Part shown: piece by piece, positions 50,870 through 59,206 of the stretch | Position numbering within the stretch: the stretch's first letter is position 1 | How the letters are laid out: each line of letters begins with the position of its first letter | Assembly (NCBI GenBank): GCA_963719515.1 | Contig: CAVRCJ010000007.1 | Coordinates: forward strand, 1 to 64,000 | Length of the DNA: 64,000 bases | From: an uncultured cyanobacterium | Lineage (GTDB): Bacteria > Cyanobacteriota > Cyanobacteriia > CAKZMO01 | Direction: 5' to 3' | Made by a program: the position numbers and the translations under genes | Notes under the pieces: model-generated | The model's input: only the letters and a program-made list of their open reading frames with translations | Told to the model about the DNA's origin: nothing | Databases searched by the model: none

Positions 50870-51430
50870 ATGTCAAATCAGCAAAGTAGAAGAGTAATTA
50901 TGCGACCCATCAATATTGGCTTAACGGATGAGCAGCGGAAAGGCGTCATCGATATGCTGAACCAGGACTTGGCCGATCAGTATCTCTTGAACATCAAAAC
51001 GAAGAAGTATCACTGGGATGTGGTTGGTCCTTCATTCCGCAGCCTGCATGAGCTGTGGCAAGAGCACTACGAAGCAATCACGCTGAACATTGACGCGACC
51101 GCAGAGCGGGTCCGCGCTCTGGGCGGCTACCCCGTCGGCACAGCAGAGGGGTTCCTAAAGCTAACCACCATTAAAGAGCACACGGGTGACCTGCCCAACT
51201 CCACTGAGATGGTCTCTCGCCTAGTGGAAAACCACGAGCAAATTATCCAGAACCTGCGGTCTCACGTGGATGACTGCGGAGAGAAGTACGGCGACGAAGG
51301 TACGGCCGACTTCTTGACGGGGCTCATGGAGCAGCACGAAGAGATGGCCTGGATGCTGCGCTCCTTCATCGAAGGTCAGGCGCTATCGCCGTCTGGTCAG
51401 CGTGAAGGCGACGCGTCTGTCGCGGTGTAG
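50870..51430 (+). CDS. dps: Dps-family ferritin-like DNA protection protein
   Basis: KTKKYHWDVVGPSFRSLH, DATAER, HEEMAWML; start may be at 50900. Confidence 0.92.
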   Translation: MSNQQSRRVIMRPINIGLTDEQRKGVIDMLNQDLADQYLLNIKTKKYHWDVVGPSFRSLHELWQEHYEAITLNIDATAERVRALGGYPVGTAEGFLKLTTIKEHTGDLPNSTEMVSRLVENHEQIIQNLRSHVDDCGEKYGDEGTADFLTGLMEQHEEMAWMLRSFIEGQALSPSGQREGDASVAV

Positions 51431-51479
51431 CCACACGATATAACCCCCTGTATCTACGTAAAAGAGAAGATTTTGCATC

Positions 51480-52250
51480 ATGGTAGCCGAAACCTATAAA
51501 GCTGAGAAAACTGTATCTGCAGTGTTCGAATCTCAGCAAAAAGTCAACGACGTGATTCAACGCTTGCTCGATCGCGGTGTGACGCAGGAGCATATTTCTG
51601 CCCTAGGCCGCAACTTTGAGACAGAGACCCGCATCACGGGATTCATCTCCAAAAAGGATGTGATTCTTGGCGGCCTTAGAACCGGCGCCATTTTCGGGTC
51701 TCTGTTTGGGTCTTTGCTCAGCCTATTGACCGGCGTTGGGGTCTTGTTCATCCCCTTTATAGGCTCAGTCGTGGCGGCGGGCCCGATTGGGGCGGTGCTT
51801 CTAGGGGCGGCGAGTGGCGCTTTAGCCGGTAGCGCGGGCGCGGGTATCGCCTCTGCCCTGGCCACCCTAGGCATGCCTCAGGAAAAAGCAGCCATCTACG
51901 AGACGCGCCTGAAAGCGGGCGAGTTTATTGTGATGGCTGAGGTGCCCGCCGACCGGACGGGAGAGTATCAGCTGCTGATGGAGAGCGCCGGTGGTGAAGA
52001 GATTCACACTCTAGAAACCGCGCTGCCTCGCGCCTGTCCGGGCCGGTGCAGCGGGCCTGAGAGCTTATCTCCTGAGGTGCGCTCGCATCTCTCCGAGGAA
52101 GCGCAGCCCCTGTTCATCGATCGCTACAACGAGGTGTTCGACGAAACTCAGGACGAGTCGAAAGCTGAGCATGAGGCTTGGTCCGTCGTCCGCGATCGCT
52201 TTGACGAAGATGAAAACGGCGTTTACTCGAAACCTAAGGTGAACGCCTAG
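51480..52250 (+). CDS. general-stress membrane domain fused to a ChaB domain
   Basis: Gly-rich hairpin [13 protein letters not shown]-terminal [24 protein letters not shown]. Confidence 0.75.
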
Positions 52251-52512
52251 CGACGGGTAGACGGCCAGGCCGCTAGACTGGGGCGTGCAGCGTACTGCGT
52301 GCCCCATTTTCATGCGATGGGGGACATATCCGCTCTGCCGATAGAGGCCTCGCGATATATAGCTTTAGCCCCATTGCTTGAGACAATATCGCGGGCTCAA
52401 ACCCTCACATGGCATAGACAATGTGGCGCGCAAATGTCCTAAGCCTTGGAACATTTCTATAACAGCAAAGACAAGCTTCAGCCTTTGCCCTTTGCCCTAA
52501 CCTTGAGCATTT

Positions 52513-53754
52513 ATGCCGCTGTTTAAAGGCCTGCGGGCCAAGTTCGATCTGCCGGTGCAGTTTTGGGTTGTCGCGCTGATTGCGTTTATCAACTCGGTCA
52601 GCTTCACCATCATTATCCCGATTCTCTATCCCTACGCTAAAGAATTTGGGCTGAGTGACTTTCAAGCGAGCTTGCTCACAACGGCATACGCTGTTTCGCA
52701 GTTTGTTGCCACACCGCTGCTGGGGCGGCTTTCCGATGTCATGGGCCGTAAGCCGCTGTTGGTGGTCAGCCTTGTGGGGACGGTCATCGCCAACTTGATC
52801 GCCAGCTGGGCCTCGTTTGCCTGGCTGCTGTTTAGCGCTCGCGTTCTGGACGGCGTCACCGGGGGCAATAACTCCATTGCCCGCGCTGTCATCAGCGACA
52901 CCACCTCCCCTGAAGATCGCCCCAGAGCCTTTGGCCTATTTGACGCGGCCTTTCGCATGGGGTTTGTTACTGGCCCTGCCATCAGCTTTTTTGCCCAGGG
53001 TTTGCCGACCATACCCGGCGTCTCGCCTTTGGGAATGAGCTTTTTTGCGGGCGCGGTGATGGCGGCAATCGCCACCGGCCTGACGATGCTGCTGCTTAAG
53101 GAGACGCTCCCTCAAGATGATTGCGCAGATTCTTTGAAGCTGAGCTGGAAAATGTTTGGCTTTGGGAAAATCATCAGCTCCATTCGCCGCCCTTGCCTGG
53201 GGCAGGTGTTTTTGCTCACCTTTTTGAGCGGCTTTACCTTCACCATTTTCACGTTTGCCTTCCAGCCCTTTTTCCTCAACGTGCTGGGACAGGATGCCCA
53301 AACCCTGGCAATTCTGTTTACCATGATTGGCGTTGTTGGCGTGCTGACGCAGATTTTTGCGGTGGAGCCGCTGACGAAGCGGTTTAACCTAGCGGATATC
53401 ATGTTTGTGGCGATCGCGGTGCGGGGGCTGCTCTTTTTGCTGATGCCGGCGTTCCCCACGGTAGCGGTGTTTGTGGGACTGCTGGCGCTCCTAGGAGTAG
53501 TGAACTCTTTTCCCATGCCGCTGATCAGCTCTATCTTGAGCAACAACAGCGGCGATCGCGAGCAGGGAGAGGTGATGGGCATCAATGCCTCCTACTTGAG
53601 CATCTCGAATGCGATCGGTCCGGCCACGGCAGGGCTGCTGGTGAGCTTTGGCTACGGGACGCCGTTTTGGGTGACGGGGGTGCTGACGCTGCTGACGGCG
53701 GGGTTTGCACTACACCTGAAGCGGGTAGCGGACTGCGACAAGAAGGTGGCTTAG
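52513..53754 (+). CDS. MFS transporter (TetA/DHA1-like)
   Basis: GRLSDVMGRKP motif A, ARVLDGVTGG, ~12 TM segments. Confidence 0.92.
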   Translation: MPLFKGLRAKFDLPVQFWVVALIAFINSVSFTIIIPILYPYAKEFGLSDFQASLLTTAYAVSQFVATPLLGRLSDVMGRKPLLVVSLVGTVIANLIASWASFAWLLFSARVLDGVTGGNNSIARAVISDTTSPEDRPRAFGLFDAAFRMGFVTGPAISFFAQGLPTIPGVSPLGMSFFAGAVMAAIATGLTMLLLKETLPQDDCADSLKLSWKMFGFGKIISSIRRPCLGQVFLLTFLSGFTFTIFTFAFQPFFLNVLGQDAQTLAILFTMIGVVGVLTQIFAVEPLTKRFNLADIMFVAIAVRGLLFLLMPAFPTVAVFVGLLALLGVVNSFPMPLISSILSNNSGDREQGEVMGINASYLSISNAIGPATAGLLVSFGYGTPFWVTGVLTLLTAGFALHLKRVADCDKKVA

Positions 53755-53780
53755 ACCCATACTAGTGGCGACAATACAAT

Positions 53781-53814
53781 TGAGCCACCCCGCGAGCATG
53801 AACGGGGTGGCTCA
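53781..53814. terminator. strong hairpin after the MFS gene, possible terminator
   Basis: 12-bp perfect stem TGAGCCACCCCG/CGGGGTGGCTCA between convergent ORFs; no U-tract. Confidence 0.5.
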
Positions 53815-53945
53815 CTCAGTAAAACCATTCTCCAAGGTGAGAACGGCTGTACCGGAGCGCTCACAGTTGACGCGGCGATCGCGACGCGAAGGCAATGGCT
53901 CTATCGCCGTATTACAACATCGTTTTATAGCACGATGGTCAACCG

Positions 53946-54236
53946 CTACGCCGCTAGCTCACTCGCCACGGTGAAGCTGACGTCTGCTACCGCACCGCTT
54001 CCTGCCAGGAATACCTCCATACGGGCCACGATATCCCCTTCGCCCAGGGCAAAGGTAGCGTCAGCCTCTGCCTCTAGAGGCAGACCTAAAGCGACCAAAC
54101 CAGCGGTGTCCAAATCGCCTGCGATCGCGTCAACAGCGCCGCTCACGTCGGTGAGTTCGATGTCAGCCGTGTCCAAGAATTCCTCGTCAAAGAAGAGGCT
54201 GGTGACGCTAGAGGAATCGCTGCCCCCCACAACCAC
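53946..54236 (-). pseudogene. acidic fragment of a probable extracellular protein
   Basis: Protein-like acidic beta-rich sequence with no RBS or good start, and a stop just upstream. Confidence 0.35.
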
Positions 54237-54459
54237 AAACTGACTTGCTCAATGTGTAGCCTAGAGCACAAACGATATAATCAATTTATGCAGGTTTCTG
54301 AGCAACTTCCCATCAGCTTCTTATGGTCTGCTCAGAGTTCAGTCAGGAGCGGCTCAGATAGCTCCGGCACTATAGAAACTGTAGACAACAGGCAAATCGC
54401 TTCATTCAGCTTCGACCGCTGCCTGCAATGCGCCCCCAATTTTTAAGGAGATTTCTGTT

Positions 54460-54819
54460 ATGAAACGTATCTTTACCGCCGTTCTATCCATCGCCGCGAT
54501 CGCCGCCTTTACTGCCCCCGCTGCTGCGCTCTCTGGCCGCCACGCTGAAGAGTTCCACGAAGGCCTAGGCAATAAGCTCTCGGGTCGCTTTGAAGAAGAG
54601 TTTCGTGAAGGTCTGGGCAACAAGCTCTCGGGTCGCTTTGAAGAAGAGTTTCGTGAAGGTCTGGGCAACAAGCTCTCGGGTCGCTTTGAAGAAGAGTTTC
54701 GTGAAGGTCTGGGCAACAAGCTCTCTGGCCGCTTCGAAGAAGAGTTCCGTGAGGGTCTGGGCAATAAACTCTCGGGTCGCTTTGAAGAAGAGTTTCGCGA
54801 AGGTCTAGGCAACAAATAG
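54460..54819 (+). CDS. secreted tandem-repeat peptide (signal peptide + 6 x 16 aa)
   Basis: TAAGGAG RBS; 23-aa Sec signal ending AAA; LSGRHAEEFHEGLGNK then five LSGRFEEEFREGLGNK; own terminator. Confidence 0.85.
   Translation: MKRIFTAVLSIAAIAAFTAPAAALSGRHAEEFHEGLGNKLSGRFEEEFREGLGNKLSGRFEEEFREGLGNKLSGRFEEEFREGLGNKLSGRFEEEFREGLGNKLSGRFEEEFREGLGNK
54529..54816 (+). repeat. 48-bp coding tandem repeat, 6 units
   Basis: Contiguous units without spacers; units 2-6 differ only synonymously. Confidence 0.95.
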
Positions 54820-54870
54820 AGGTTTTACCTGAGGTAAAAAGTTCGAGCTACCACACAGACATAGACACAA

Positions 54871-54901
54871 TTCCAGGGCCTCAAAACCCTGGGATTTTTT
54901 T
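54871..54901 (+). terminator. rho-independent terminator
   Basis: TCCAGGG-CCTCAAAA-CCCTGGG hairpin followed by A and a T7 tract. Confidence 0.8.
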
Positions 54902-54906
54902 GCGGG

Positions 54907-55288
54907 TTAGCGCGTCGGGCGCTGCTGCACCAGATAGCTCAACACTTGCCCCTGAGCCGGTGTGATTCTAATGCCCTGCTCCCGGATCGCAATCAGCGGG
55001 GTCCACAGTCGTCTTTCGACGTACTGCAGCAGGTGCAGTCGGGCGTTCGCACTAGCGAAGGCTTTGCCTTATCGCATCCTGGACGTCTGCGGGGGAGCCG
55101 ATGATGATGTGCCTCAGGTGTGAGTCTCCGCCTGATTCTGAAGGATCGACACAGCTGGGGGCTGGGGACGGCTCGATTAACACTGGCGCGATGGGTGCTG
55201 TGTCTGGCGCGGAGCCGGGTACATCGCTGGGCAGCGCGGGCTGTGCCGCCTCTTCGGTGGAGGGCGACAGATAAGTTTTAGGTAACAT
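54907..55288 (-). pseudogene. paralog of the 22289 gene, disrupted by a 25-nt insertion
   Basis: Deleting 55046-55070 restores GCGATCGC and a 118-aa ORF (..VQDAIARLHLLQYVERRLWTPLI..QQRPTR*). Confidence 0.8.
55046..55070 (-). repeat. 25-nt double-hairpin SDR-like insertion within a HIP1 site
   Basis: GCGAT[AAGGCAAAGCCTTCGCTAGTGCGAA]CGC; overlapping hairpins AAGGC-AAA-GCCTT and TTCGC-TAGT-GCGAA. Confidence 0.85.
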
Positions 55289-55539
55289 GAGGGACTCCTG
55301 TTTACGTTGGGTTAGGAGTCCCCCAAAAACCGGTCATCACCAAACGTTTACGCGGTTCGAGATGACACAGGTAAAATTACCTCAGTTCTTCCCGACAGCT
55401 GTAACCTGTCGTGTGGGATTAGGGGCCGCATGTTGTCTGCATCAACATGCGGCTCCGCCCGACCGAATTCTTGGGAGACTAAGCCATGGAGACCACGGCT
55501 ACAGCAACTGAGGATAATACATTTGGTCTTTGGAGGCAA
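55289..55539 (-). promoter_or_regulatory. putative sigma70 promoter and ~215-nt structured 5' leader
   Basis: TTGCCT-17-TATCCT; hairpins AGCCGTGG/CCATGGCT, GCCGCATGTTG/CAACATGCGGC, CGACAG/CTGTCG, GTCATC/GATGAC; GGGACTCCT/AGGAGTCCC covers the RBS. Confidence 0.6.
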
Positions 55540-55623
55540 GGTGTCTGATGGTGGCGATCGCGTCTAAGCGTTAGGCAATTCCCGACGGGTTGAAGTGGAG
55601 CCGATGATGGCAAAGGGCAGAGC

Positions 55624-55863
55624 GTGAAAGCGGCTGAACTACTGCGACTCTATGAGGCGGGGCGGCGGGCCTGGATTCGCGCTACTTCTGTCGCGTTTGC
55701 GGCAACGGGTGGCACGAGCTTTTACCGCGCTAATCTGACGGATGCTAGTTTTGCGGGGGCTCAGCTTCGGGGTACGGATTTTCAGCAGGCGACATTGACT
55801 GGTGTAATTTGGCGAGAGGCTGAGGGGCTAGCCTGGGTGCGATTGGATGAACGGCTTGAATAG
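55624..55863 (+). pseudogene. internally deleted pentapeptide-repeat protein remnant
   Basis: MKAAELLRLYEAGRR start joined directly to WIRATSVAFAATGGTSFYRANLTDASF, which normally lies far downstream; early stop. Confidence 0.55.
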
Positions 55864-55995
55864 CTGTAAAAGCTAAACTTACTGATTTGTGGTCAACAAG
55901 AGGAAGGCGATCGCGGTTTTTGGTTGGCGATCGCTTCGATGCTCCGAAGGACCTTCGAGGGCGTAGTCTATTGCGAACGAACGTCCTTCGCTGTT

Positions 55996-57750
55996 CTAGA
56001 TGAAGTCTGCGCGATTAAGATCACCGACGTTCACGTTTTCTAACAGAAGTATGCTGCGTCCGCGAAATTGCACCAGCACATCATCTCGCCGCTGATCTAG
56101 AGTAATCTGACCCAAGCCAATACCAATCAAATTAACTCTGTCACGCCTGTCTTGAAAGTCGGTAACGCGGTCGAATCCTTTACCGCGAATAATGATTTGG
56201 TCGCGTCCGGAGCCAGTCTTTATGACGTCGCTGCCGCCGCCGCCATCAATACGATCATTTCCCGCGCTACCAATCATAACGTCGTTGCCGCCGCCGCCGC
56301 CCAAGCGATCGTTGCCGGCCCCACCAATCAATCGGTCCTTGCCGCCGCCGCCCTCTAAGCGGTCGTTGCCGGCTCCGCCAATCAAGACGTCTCTACCGCC
56401 GCCGCCAAGGAGCGTATCCCTGTCAATACCGCCAACGAGTCGGTCGTTACCGCCCTGGCCTATAAGACGATCGTTGCCGGAACCGCCTATGAGACGATCG
56501 TTGCCAGAACCGCCTATGAGCTGGTCGTTACCGATGCCACCATTGAAGCGATCGTTTCCAGGGGTACCGACTATAACATCATCGTTGGGCGGTGGCAGTA
56601 TTGGTTGTGGCGATGGCAATATCGGCTGCGGCGATGTTGGCTGTGACGGTGCTCCGGTTGGAACTTGGGTAATGTCTATGTTGTAAGTAGTTGAGGCCCC
56701 TCCTATCCGAATAAAGTAGGTTCCAGCCGATAGATTTGTAGATAGTCTGTCACGCCCACTGAATCTCCGAGCAACACGCTCACTAGATTCAGCAACGTTG
56801 TTACCATTTCTATCAGCAAAGATATCAAAAAATATTCTATTGGTTTCTCCACTAAAAACTACACCTAAGTTACTATTTTGGGCCAGTGTAAACTTATAGA
56901 AATCGAACTCATCTAAAGTACCTACGTAATCGCGGATACTGCGCCCTCTAGGTAGTACGCCTAAATCGAGCGCCTGGGCAATATTATTTCCGGGGTCTAC
57001 AGGAATATTGCTTGGCTTTAAAGTTGGTGATAGTCGAAGATCATAGTTTGTTGTTGCTCCATCTACCTCAATGAAGTAGTCTCCGGCTGGTAAGTCTGTA
57101 GAAAGAACATCGCGTACATTTGATCTTCTTACGATGTCTTCACCGCGATCAAAAATTCTATTGTTGTTTCGATCGGAAATAATTCTGATAGTGTTAATTC
57201 TATCATTACCTTCTTCATCAACGACTACTGCAAGATTTCCATTCTCGGGTAGCGTAAGCTTGTAAAAATCGGAGTCGTCCAATTCTCCTATATAGTCTTT
57301 TAAGCTAAGTTCTGCAGAGACTATTCCCAGATCAAATGCTTGATCGATGCTATTTCCAGGGTCTGAAACAAGATTACTTCGTCTTTCGGTTGCTGCTAGC
57401 TGAACGCTATAGTCGACTGTGTTGCTTATGAATGAAGGCACAGATAGCTGAATAAAATAAGCTCCAGCTGTTAAAGGTCTAAAAAATCTTCCTGATGTTG
57501 GAAAGGAGCTTCCCCTAATACGCTCGGTATCTTGAACAATTCCATCTTTATTTATATCAGTAAGTAGAGTGAATGAGGGTGTTCTCGTTATACTACTTAT
57601 GTTTGCTGAAAAATCGCTGTTTTGATTAAGGGTGAATTGATAATACGCAGTCTGGTCTGTGTCATCAAAGGTATCAATGATAGTACGCAGGCTAGACAGA
57701 ACGCCGAGATCATTTGCGGTTGCGAGGGTATTGTCGGACAGTGAAACCAT
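55996..57750 (-). CDS. RTX/hemolysin-type calcium-binding protein with three PPC-like repeats
   Basis: Three ~120-aa repeats (A.DLGVL..D.DFYKFTL..AGTYFI), Pro-rich linker, many GGxGNDxL nonamers; AT-rich. Confidence 0.9.
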   Translation of the reverse strand: MVSLSDNTLATANDLGVLSSLRTIIDTFDDTDQTAYYQFTLNQNSDFSANISSITRTPSFTLLTDINKDGIVQDTERIRGSSFPTSGRFFRPLTAGAYFIQLSVPSFISNTVDYSVQLAATERRSNLVSDPGNSIDQAFDLGIVSAELSLKDYIGELDDSDFYKLTLPENGNLAVVVDEEGNDRINTIRIISDRNNNRIFDRGEDIVRRSNVRDVLSTDLPAGDYFIEVDGATTNYDLRLSPTLKPSNIPVDPGNNIAQALDLGVLPRGRSIRDYVGTLDEFDFYKFTLAQNSNLGVVFSGETNRIFFDIFADRNGNNVAESSERVARRFSGRDRLSTNLSAGTYFIRIGGASTTYNIDITQVPTGAPSQPTSPQPILPSPQPILPPPNDDVIVGTPGNDRFNGGIGNDQLIGGSGNDRLIGGSGNDRLIGQGGNDRLVGGIDRDTLLGGGGRDVLIGGAGNDRLEGGGGKDRLIGGAGNDRLGGGGGNDVMIGSAGNDRIDGGGGSDVIKTGSGRDQIIIRGKGFDRVTDFQDRRDRVNLIGIGLGQITLDQRRDDVLVQFRGRSILLLENVNVGDLNRADFI

Positions 57751-58351
57751 GTGAATCTATAGTGACAAGTGTGGCTATCAATCAAGACGAACATGTATAA
57801 TTTATCACTAGAAAATCGAAGTACATCTAATATTGCGCGATGGTAACAATTCCGCAAAGAGATTAACATTTTGGTAAGAATTTTAAAATTTAATCAAATG
57901 ATCATTGCGCAGGCTCTACAAGCAGTTGTGGCATGTTTACAACTACTACAATCGTGAGCGATAAATACGCACAGGTTGAAGTATCTCTGTCGTAGCGTTA
58001 TTTTTAGGCCGGAGTAATCCTGATTTTGTTTTCCGGAACGGTGATCAAGGCTATCCATTGTTCCTACTCTACGTACTGCAGCAGATCCAATGCCGCCGCC
58101 GTCGGCAACATCACCAGCGGAGCCGTCACCTTCTCCGGCGACCTTAACAGCTTCGCCAATAACCTCACCGAGCTAACCCAGACCCTAGGTATTCCCGTCG
58201 AGCAGGTGCAAACGCCTCAGCCGTAGGCACACACCATTGTCATACAGACTGCATCTCGATTAACCTAAAGCGACAAATTGACAATATTTTGTGCTGGGAC
58301 AGCTACCATAGCTCTGTAATTATATGTATTGCGCAATATTTCAATCGACCT

Positions 58352-59206
58352 ATGACCCTAAAATTACTCATAACCCTAGCGGCCCTGCTCACCCTGCCCC
58401 TCCCTGCTGTCGCCCAAAATATTCAAAGCGTTGACGACGCCCCCAACGACACCTTCAGCGATCGCGTCTCCATCGCTCCTGACGTCACGCGAATCTTTGG
58501 ACAGCTTGAGCCACCGGAAATCCCTGACACAGACTATCGCACTCGCGAAGCGATGAGTCGGGGCGAAGCCAACACCGTGACGATTACCGGCCTGCCCGCC
58601 TCCGAGCCCTTCTTCGCCTGGGTGGAGTCTGACGACTCAATGGACCTCGTCATGGCGCAGTTCGACGGTGCCGGAAACATGATCCTATTCGACGACGACA
58701 GCAGTCCGTTTGGAAGCCTTGCGCCAGCGATTCGAGGCATCGTACCCAGTAATGGGACGGTAGAACTCAAGGTATCGGGGCTTGGGGATGACGATTTCGA
58801 CGGATTTCAGGATTACTACAACCCCGAGGGTGTGGTGTCGTCGCGCGACCCACACGGCCAAGCAGGAGACTATACCCTATCGGTACTCACGGGTGAAGAG
58901 AGCATCACCGGTGACCTCGACTTCTTCACGCTGAGTGGACTGACGCCGGGAGATGTTTTTTCGGTAGCCGTCAGCCTCGCAGAAGCTGGGGCTTCCGTAG
59001 GCTGGCTAGCGGGCGATGGCAGCCTAATTGGCCGCAGCATTTACTCTGAGGTGGATAGTCGTGAGCAGGTCAGCGGCCTAGTTCCGGCCAGCGGCGAGAT
59101 TCATCTTGTGGTGAGTGGGTATGAAGACTTCAGATTTGAAGGACGTCACGGAACCTCTGGAGAATACGTTATAGCTGTCGAGACCCGAGCTGTTGAGTCA
59201 CCATAG
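58352..59206 (+). CDS. secreted acidic protein with PPC-like beta domains
   Basis: Signal peptide ending AVA; FDDDSS, GDDDFDG, GDYTLSV, DLDFFTLSGLTPG. Confidence 0.7.
   Translation: MTLKLLITLAALLTLPLPAVAQNIQSVDDAPNDTFSDRVSIAPDVTRIFGQLEPPEIPDTDYRTREAMSRGEANTVTITGLPASEPFFAWVESDDSMDLVMAQFDGAGNMILFDDDSSPFGSLAPAIRGIVPSNGTVELKVSGLGDDDFDGFQDYYNPEGVVSSRDPHGQAGDYTLSVLTGEESITGDLDFFTLSGLTPGDVFSVAVSLAEAGASVGWLAGDGSLIGRSIYSEVDSREQVSGLVPASGEIHLVVSGYEDFRFEGRHGTSGEYVIAVETRAVESP

Follow-up and report, generated by a model that had tools for sequence, protein, structure and literature searches.

What does a bacterium do with a secreted protein that consists, from its predicted signal peptidase site to its stop codon, of six 16-residue units and nothing else? 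The question is raised by a gene at positions 54460-54819 (+) of a 64,000-nucleotide stretch of DNA from an uncultured cyanobacterium (positions 1 to 64,000 of contig CAVRCJ010000007.1, assembly GCA_963719515.1), which we refer to as the window. An earlier note, made from the letters of the window, had proposed that cleavage after the lysine ending each unit would release near-identical 16-mers as a multi-copy peptide signal. As we describe below, the gene belongs to an undescribed, lineage-restricted, and unannotated family whose units are under strong purifying selection, and whose array appears behind two different kinds of export leader. We give about an even chance to the reading that the array stays intact as a flexible string of equivalent binding modules, in which unit number would set the valency and the partner could be an ion, an envelope or matrix polymer, or a protein. 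Small exported peptides of cyanobacteria are known mainly as RiPP natural products (peptides made on the ribosome and modified after translation), PatS-type morphogens, and EbfG biofilm proteins; the present cargo type adds to these, and was not recognized by the family libraries or text searches that we used.

Anatomy of the repeat gene

The open reading frame (ORF) encodes 119 amino acids, and both the sequence and the ORF list confirm the initial description of a ribosome-binding site, a 23-residue signal peptide, and six contiguous units running from AAA|L to the TAG stop codon (23 + 6 x 16 = 119). The mature region consists of LSGRHAEEFHEGLGNK once and then LSGRFEEEFREGLGNK five times, and the parts of the gene are laid out as follows:

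54445..54450, + strand: ribosome-binding site AAGGAG, 9 nt 5' of the ATG (direct sequence reading)
54460..54528, + strand: Sec-type signal peptide, 23 codons (MKRIFTAVLSIAAIAAFTAPAAA), with predicted signal peptidase I site AAA|L (-3/-1 rule)
54529..54576, + strand: unit 1, LSGRHAEEFHEGLGNK ('HA type'), distinct from the later units (unit comparison)
54577..54816, + strand: units 2-6, five copies of LSGRFEEEFREGLGNK (Tandem Repeats Finder, unit comparison)
54817..54819, + strand: stop codon TAG, immediately 3' of the Lys of unit 6 (sequence, ORF list)
54869..54903, + strand: intrinsic-terminator-like hairpin (10 bp stem) and U run (terminator scan, folding energy)

The leader was assigned to the Sec type by rule and not by a predictor, the rule being a basic n-region, a hydrophobic core of at least 10 residues, and small residues at -3 and -1; read as MKR / IFTAVLSIAAIAAF / TAPAAA|L, it shows all of these (KR in the n-region, Ala at -3 and -1). 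It has no lipobox Cys and no twin-Arg motif, and is a Sec signal peptide instead of a double-glycine leader. Signal peptidase I would be expected to cut at AAA|L, freeing a 96-residue, acidic, and very hydrophilic chain into the periplasm. The terminator previously assigned to the gene was found as a hairpin at 54869-54896 followed by a T run, 50 nt past the stop (-14.6 kcal/mol, z = -2.39 versus shuffles); its reverse complement was also scored terminator-like, and it sits just beyond a convergent minus-strand ORF remnant, which it could equally terminate. An Rfam search of 53700-56000 gave a chance miRNA match alone (E = 0.47).

At the DNA level, Tandem Repeats Finder resolves the array into 5.6 copies of a 48-nt period (90% matches, score 433). 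Part of the array is a very recent expansion, as units 2-4 share one and the same DNA sequence. Compared with these, unit 5 shows 7 nt differences and unit 6 shows 3, with 8 between units 5 and 6, every one of them synonymous. The earlier claim that units 2-6 differ only at synonymous positions is therefore correct for units 5 and 6, while units 2-4 do not differ at all.

An undescribed, lineage-restricted family

The window protein had no match above cut-off in Pfam (best E = 0.029) or NCBIfam (best E = 0.22) and no PDB profile match at E up to 10, and its best ESM Atlas score, 0.82, fell below lead level and carried no informative name. Literature text searches (GLGNK; Gly-Gly peptides and repeat precursors in cyanobacteria; supplements excluded) returned no description of the family. 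The EFx[ED]G[LM]GNK-type 16-mer pure array thus matched nothing in the libraries or texts searched, as the earlier note had anticipated in stating that it knew of no described cyanobacterial family of this kind.

A search of 5.8 billion proteins found 45 relatives, of which the named ones come from Elainellaceae or Leptolyngbyaceae metagenome-assembled genomes (MAGs), and a profile built from three mature units had only 46 matches among 1.84 billion cluster representatives. Long proteins make up at least 10 of these 46: the 6 inspected bear other or loosely similar repeats, and four further ones were excluded by length alone. A pattern scan of GTDB species genomes yielded 47 loci, all but 2 titled cyanobacterial MAGs. 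Among whole genomes, all 17 of the 17 from the window's own family and order carry the repeat family, as a rule with several copies each, so that each genome examined from this filamentous lineage has the pure 16-residue array and paralogs of it; of 400 other cyanobacterial genomes, sampled evenly, 1 carries it.

The window's own genome has four paralogs, of which three are of the Sec type, namely the window gene (6 units), the C6 paralog (3 units), and the C1 paralog (3 units); the fourth, the C14 paralog, is taken up with the leaders below. The arrays have between 2 and 10 units in the window's own family and up to about 17 in one outlying genome, so that the exact count of six proved to be a property of this gene and not of the family. 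The outlying genome, from a different cyanobacterial family, carries a 312-aa Sec-type relative (L010:1420-2358, G158:C2) in which many units alternate between LSERQRDEFVSGQGNQ and LSERQRDEFIDGLGNK, giving a 32-aa super-repeat, and more than half end in Gln; three more multi-unit copies are present in the same genome. Outside the family, the only match to the core pattern in the window's own genome is KEFIEGLGNS in an ApcE-like phycobilisome core-membrane linker (G000:C6:335227-337947), which we judged to be due to chance, about 3 chance matches being expected by a rough estimate.

Selection on the unit

A logo of 187 unique units shows strong preferences for Leu1 (94%), Arg4 (92%), Glu8 (96%), Phe9 (96%), Leu13 (89%), and Lys16 (90%); Gly12, Gly14, and Asn15 were fixed by the pattern with which the units were extracted, so that the logo does not measure conservation there. 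With these three pattern-fixed positions included, the junction G-L-G-N-K / L-S-x-R is the most conserved part of the unit. Position 2 is Ser/Thr, with Glu or Asn instead in certain units; Gly, Glu, and Asp are all seen at position 3. This last variation led us to reject a PatS-like RGSGR morphogen, to which K-L-S-G-R bears some similarity. Positions 5, 6, 10, and 11 vary among genes and are constant within a gene, and in some family genes two types of unit take turns. Across the family, unit 1 stands apart from the units that follow it (n = 77 versus 197), with His5 in 59% versus 25% and Ala6 in 44% versus 17%.

Between orthologs, the ratio of nonsynonymous to synonymous divergence (pN/pS) of the mature region is 0.04-0.14 at pS 0.7-1.0, where synonymous sites are nearly saturated, and that of the leaders is 0.11-0.39. 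Units are also held identical within genes: the C6 paralog has three protein-identical units with 24 nt differences summed over the three pairs, 0 of them nonsynonymous, and the internal units of several relatives are likewise protein-identical despite synonymous divergence. For pairs of units at pS 0.4-0.6, there was no amino-acid difference in 31 of 65 within-gene pairs versus 2 of 866 between-gene pairs, figures to be read with the caution that the pairs are not independent and that pS over 48 nt is noisy. This is a real gene with strong purifying selection on its units. The earlier suggestion of selection on the unit peptide, and not slippage alone, is upheld by the synonymous-only differences, the low pN/pS, and the within-gene protein identity. 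That units are kept identical within a protein, at positions where one protein differs from the next, speaks for a specific partner of each unit type.

The same data bear on the possibility that the array is non-functional, a repeat generated by slippage that happens to be open by chance. The DNA identity of units 2-4, and the recent expansion that it reflects, are what such a process would leave behind. It is contradicted by the synonymous nature of all 10 differences that set units 5 and 6 apart from units 2-4 and of the 8 that separate unit 5 from unit 6, by the mature-region pN/pS of orthologs and paralogs, by the occurrence of the family throughout the 17 related genomes, and by the presence of a ribosome-binding site, signal peptide, terminator, and conserved upstream block; we consider it extremely improbable.

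The mature chain (96 residues, 11.03 kDa, pI 5.1) has a grand average of hydropathy (GRAVY) of -1.19, 19% Gly, and a net charge of -1 per unit. EF-hand, RTX, and ATCUN metal motifs were looked for by eye and with Pfam and rejected. For the first two, which we defined by a 12-residue DxDxDG loop and by GGxGxDxUx nonapeptides, respectively, the Asp ligands are missing from G-L-G-N-K and the repeat length is 16 (by eye), and the window protein had no HemolysinCabind or EF-hand match in Pfam at E up to 1.

Unit phase and the possibility of released peptides

The architecture of the gene invites the explanation that it encodes a polyprotein, in which an envelope or extracellular endoprotease would cut the G-N-x|L-S junctions and free 16-mer copies of a signalling or otherwise bioactive peptide, with copy number acting as dose; the differing first unit would come free as a peptide of its own, as would a tail in some members. 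We regard this as possible, if doubtful. In its favor, the mature chain of the window gene and of many relatives divides exactly into whole units, the junction is the most conserved part of the unit while positions 5, 6, 10, and 11 vary between genes, and the units within a gene are protein-identical despite synonymous divergence. Known polyprotein precursors likewise keep their units identical.

The remaining features of the units point both ways. Leader and phase counts were taken from 93 unique family sequences, with the stop seen in 89. The expectation of the earlier note that repeats would be in phase with both the signal site and the stop was borne out at the N-terminus, where at least 70 of the 93 are in phase, and in part at the C-terminus, where the stop is in phase with the units in 45 of 89, and both counts speak for a polyprotein; the other 44 carry tails, mostly conserved 14-16-aa modules. 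The conserved tails, G.xSDPxxVGxxFxG and xYxxDxxxLxxxFGNG, are seen in both leader classes; that about half of all members bear a tail speaks against release. The residue that would occupy P1 is not conserved. Each unit of the window gene ends in Lys, as first described, as do 90% of unique units across the family, but in the other 10% Lys16 is replaced by Gln, His, Asn, or Arg; one relative (P0018) has no Lys-ended unit at all, and in the 17-unit relative and an 8-unit relative, Lys-ended units alternate with Gln- or Asn-ended ones. With Lys16 missing in some members, a Lys-specific cut cannot be the general mechanism of the family. To our knowledge, moreover, no unmodified multi-copy peptide precursor has been established in bacteria, which also counts against a polyprotein.

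Neighboring genes give it no further help. The 80 neighbors of Sec-type genes (28 loci) include 1 partial subtilase, 0 ATP-grasp, and 0 radical-SAM genes, so that no protease or modifying enzyme recurs among them; this supports an unmodified cargo.

One array behind two kinds of leader

Unit 1 directly follows a Sec signal peptide in 43 of the 93 sequences and a Gly-Gly leader in 27; the other 23 comprise about 5 parsing misses and 15-18 sequences with a spacer between signal peptide and unit 1. The leader of the Gly-Gly members is about 24 aa long, with ..ELSDEQLxxVAGG directly before unit 1, and these members have 2-3 units and never more than 3. Their product, 48 aa in the three-unit case, is of ordinary size for uncut exporter cargo and is a further point against a polyprotein. 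In the window's own genome this class is represented by the C14 paralog, in which three units stand behind MSEDIKKSQDAELSDEQLQDVAGG, the array beginning straight after the Gly-Gly; it is the sole ORF of the genome that matches a strict Gly-Gly-leader pattern.

Beside the C14 paralog lies an NHLP-type export system, which is absent at the window gene. Its components are a C39-peptidase ATP-binding cassette (ABC) exporter (TIGR03796, 1119.7 bits, cut-off 853), a peptidase-less ABC exporter (TIGR03797, 960 bits, cut-off 709), a cyclic-nucleotide-binding transport-associated protein (TIGR03896, 203 bits, cut-off 161), and a HlyD-like protein that scores slightly under its cut-off (TIGR03794). The first of these is the only C39-peptidase ABC exporter (PCAT) above cut-off in the genome; a PCAT is found in 14 of the 17 related genomes, and 8 of the 14 have it on the same contig as a family gene. 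We consider the double-glycine paralogs and their exporter cluster to be the strongest evidence that the array is export cargo. The comparison shows that leaders are interchangeable on one unit array within the family, and that a dedicated exporter set adjoins the Gly-Gly form. The double-glycine paralog would be cut after Gly-Gly and pumped out by the adjoining exporter, so that one genome appears to wire the array to two export routes. Because the same array stands behind a Sec or a double-glycine leader, with an exporter adjacent to the latter, the array is probably cargo acting, unmodified, outside the cytoplasm. The leader swap may be viewed as a natural experiment, in which function would be carried by the array and not by the leader.

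In three genomes of one genus (L057, L058, and L059; g160), a pair of genes of the double-glycine type stands in tandem; one has 3 exact units, the other 2 units and a G.ESDPxxVGQTFEG tail. At a distance of 0.6-2.4 kb there is a gene that matches the catalytic subunit of cellulose synthase (TIGR03030; scored in L058 only, with E = 9e-143, below cut-off). Its proximity may be a hint of a matrix role or mere shared synteny within one genus.

Class II bacteriocins use either Gly-Gly leaders or Sec signal peptides (enterocin P, divergicin A), a switch similar to the one seen here, and this raises the possibility that the product is an unmodified, bacteriocin-like antagonistic peptide (class II or microcin-like) exported by PCAT or Sec. 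The exporter genes match models that NCBI names for bacteriocin export. The Gly-Gly leaders also resemble those of class II bacteriocins: they fit the logo published for bacteriocin, NHLP, and Nif11 leaders (Leu2, Ser3, Leu7, Val10, Gly12-Gly13; as given in PMC2887384), and 12 of 13 tested had sub-threshold matches to the Gly-Gly-proximal ends of CTB, Nif11, or NHLP models. Membership in the CTB family bacteriocins does not follow, 11 of 13 double-glycine members scoring 14.4-23.2 bits against NF038167 (cut-off 32) over the leader part only, and the window protein having no match. We think a bacteriocin improbable. Membrane-active bacteriocins are unlike this acidic and very hydrophilic product; next to the family genes, no small membrane gene of an immunity-like kind recurs; chains of 10-17 units far exceed bacteriocin size; and the family occurs in all 17 related genomes, with several paralogs in each, under purifying and not diversifying selection.

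Double-glycine leaders and NHLP-type exporters are also typical of RiPP systems (PMC2887384), and RiPPs with Sec signals exist, such as the bufferins (PMC11626156). The array could on this account be a multi-core RiPP, its units being modified before export by a remotely encoded enzyme, for instance an ATP-grasp ligase joining Ser2 or Lys16 to Glu, for which every unit offers Ser/Thr2, Lys16, and three to four Glu/Asp. These candidate donors are variable, with Glu or Asn at position 2 and Gln, Asn, or His at position 16 in some units. No ATP-grasp, radical-SAM, LanM-type, or other RiPP enzyme was found among the 80 Sec-type neighbors or in the double-glycine clusters examined, where no modifying enzyme or protease recurs. 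For the multi-core classes specifically (cyanobactins, graspetides, microviridins), there is no PatA/PatG protease or ATP-grasp in the window, in the C14 cluster, or among the 80 neighbors. The double-glycine leader is short and of transport type, without a recognizable enzyme-recognition part, and most members have a plain Sec signal peptide. Nor does the family belong to the NHLP or Nif11 (N11P) RiPP precursors: the best scores against TIGR03793 and TIGR03798 were 26.6 bits (cut-off 32.3) and 15.7 bits (cut-off 50.9), confined to the last 17-30 model positions, and the window protein had no match to either. Overall, we judge a modified product quite improbable.

Weighing an intact chain

We favor an intact chain over release of single units because some members lack Lys16, or lack it in every other unit, because about half of the members bear conserved tails that are not units, because unit 1 is differentiated from the later ones, and because the 48-aa Gly-Gly cargo needs no second cut. 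In the picture that we propose, each module would form one short helix (approximately residues 4-13), bounded by G-L-G-N-K / L-S-x-R, and the chain would have no packed fold. AlphaFold2 with family alignments indeed gave one short helix per unit and no packing, but at low confidence and from shallow alignments (pLDDT 41.8 for the window protein and 32.5 for a 10-unit relative, with 21 and 11 rows, respectively), and is weak evidence.

Several further observations speak against an intact string of binding modules. A mature chain of an exact integer number of units is also expected of a polyprotein from which peptides are released, and the best-conserved junction, together with one identical unit type per gene, fits a polyprotein as well. 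The predicted structure has no fold that would require the whole chain, a point in favor of release. The signal peptidase site was placed by a rule of thumb, and the HlyD-like gene of the C14 cluster (TIGR03794) is short, at 201 aa, and scores 147.5 bits versus a cut-off of 156.2. Finally, the idea of an amphipathic helix had to be dropped, as the hydrophobic moment of the unit, 0.32, is reached by 34% of shuffles.

Upstream region

Two further features lie upstream of the gene:

54330..54358, + strand: direct repeat GCTCAGA-N15-GCTCAGA, candidate regulator site over the putative -35 position (7-region alignment)
54371..54376, + strand: -10-like hexamer TATAGA within the conserved GGCACTATAGAAAC block, putative promoter (conservation only)

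An alignment of 7 upstream regions shows that a block of about 150 nt is kept among the Sec-type paralogs and the orthologs of the genus; against the C6 paralog, the block at 54306-54459 is 78% identical, conservation about equal to that of the coding region. A sigma-70 consensus promoter scan called no + strand site at TATAGA. Genome-wide, a pattern scan that included the inner sequence found the GCTCAGA-N15-GCTCAGA plus TATAGA arrangement at the window gene and the C6 paralog only. The conservation of the block, with its direct repeat, suggests that a promoter was duplicated together with the gene, and hints at a specific regulator. The idea of a wider regulon for the direct repeat was dropped, as these two genes are its only occurrences in the genome and give no functional hint.

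Neighborhood of the window gene

Pfam assigns the six neighboring ORFs to Dps/ferritin, YflT plus ChaB, an MFS transporter, a pentapeptide-repeat ORF, and a PPC plus RTX protein, with one unmatched. The Pfam matches include no protease or modifying enzyme and no NHLP-type exporter, in line with the earlier note, which had seen no protease or modifying enzyme adjacent. The Dps / YflT-ChaB / MFS block (window 50870-53754) is syntenic in a sister genome (L076, G412:C16), where a MerR-like gene comes after the block and the repeat gene and the multi-copy ORF described next are absent. The segment 3' of the MFS gene therefore varies among close relatives, and the stress-gene neighborhood of the repeat gene is no conserved association.

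Directly downstream and convergent with the repeat gene is a frameshifted copy of a family of ~125-aa ORFs (window 54908-55541, - strand), which stays open over its N-terminal 78 aa (55052-55288) and continues in a different frame for the C-terminal portion. The family numbers about 20 copies in the genome at 66-82% DNA identity, has no Pfam match, and follows the approximate consensus ...HLRHIIIGSPEGV...LWTPLIAIG...GQVLSYLVQQRPxR. Farther along, at 55996-57750 (- strand), a protein of 584 aa combines three PPC (pre-peptidase C-terminal) domains with RTX calcium-binding repeats, a protease domain being absent; two other family loci, L077 and the C14 cluster, likewise have RTX-repeat genes nearby, which may be chance, since they are common in cyanobacteria. 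At 58289-59206 (+ strand), a 305-aa ORF has a signal-peptide-like N-terminus and no Pfam or NCBIfam match.

Comparison with known systems

Hydrophilins are defined by more than 6% Gly and high hydrophilicity, and the mature chain recalls them and the late embryogenesis abundant (LEA) proteins in its Gly content, its GRAVY, its lack of a predicted fold, and its variable number of helix-prone repeats; the window copy also adjoins the Dps and YflT/ChaB stress genes, an association not conserved in the sister genome. It differs from LEA proteins in having no Pfam LEA match, in a product that is probably exported and not cytoplasmic, and in a 16-aa unit with invariant Gly-x-Gly-Asn.

In the multi-core graspetide plesiocin, the repeats remain in one chain and act multivalently. 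Multi-core graspetides and the present family share repeated short cores in one exported chain rich in Ser/Thr/Lys and Glu/Asp, but graspetides are defined by an adjacent ATP-grasp ligase, and none lies near any family gene examined.

The Gly-Gly leader of the C14 paralog and its neighboring exporter genes, with TIGR03896 in addition, resemble the NHLP-type three-gene ABC systems (TIGR03794/03796/03797) as these are presented in PMC2887384. In contrast to those systems, the leader in our family is short and not homologous to nitrile hydratase or Nif11, the cargo is an acidic 16-mer tandem array with no Cys and no clustered modifying enzyme, and the majority of members, among them the window gene, rely on a Sec signal peptide.

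For Gly-Gly cargo that is left unmodified and acts as extracellular material, a precedent is provided by EbfG1-4 of Synechococcus elongatus, small double-glycine proteins that are exported through the C39-peptidase protein PteB, are not antibiotics, and are needed for biofilm formation, as described in PMC4997328. The likeness lies in export logic only: the description drawn on from PMC4997328 mentions no tandem 16-aa units or Sec-leader paralogs, and the comparison is by description and not by sequence. The sole hint of a similar biofilm role in our family is the cellulose-synthase gene near the double-glycine pairs of the three genomes of one genus.

An architectural parallel is offered by the fungal Kex2-processed repeat proteins, including the alpha-factor precursors, which in the account of PMC7329392 combine a signal peptide with tandem peptide copies in variable number, many of their genes standing alone without modifying enzymes; to this extent they favor a polyprotein. 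They are, however, eukaryotic and are cut by Golgi Kex2 at dibasic KR/RR sites, whereas the junction in our family, Asn-Lys|Leu, has a single basic residue that is absent in 10% of unique units, and the family cannot be counted among them. It seems to us rather unlikely that the family is a bacterial unmodified-peptide polyprotein, whose genes would each supply between 2 and about 17 copies and a first peptide of another kind, by either of two export routes, as lineage-specific signals passing among filaments; if it were, it would be a bacterial counterpart of the fungal alpha-factor/KEP and animal neuropeptide precursors. An organism with four such genes makes the question of multi-copy linear peptide precursors in bacteria directly testable.

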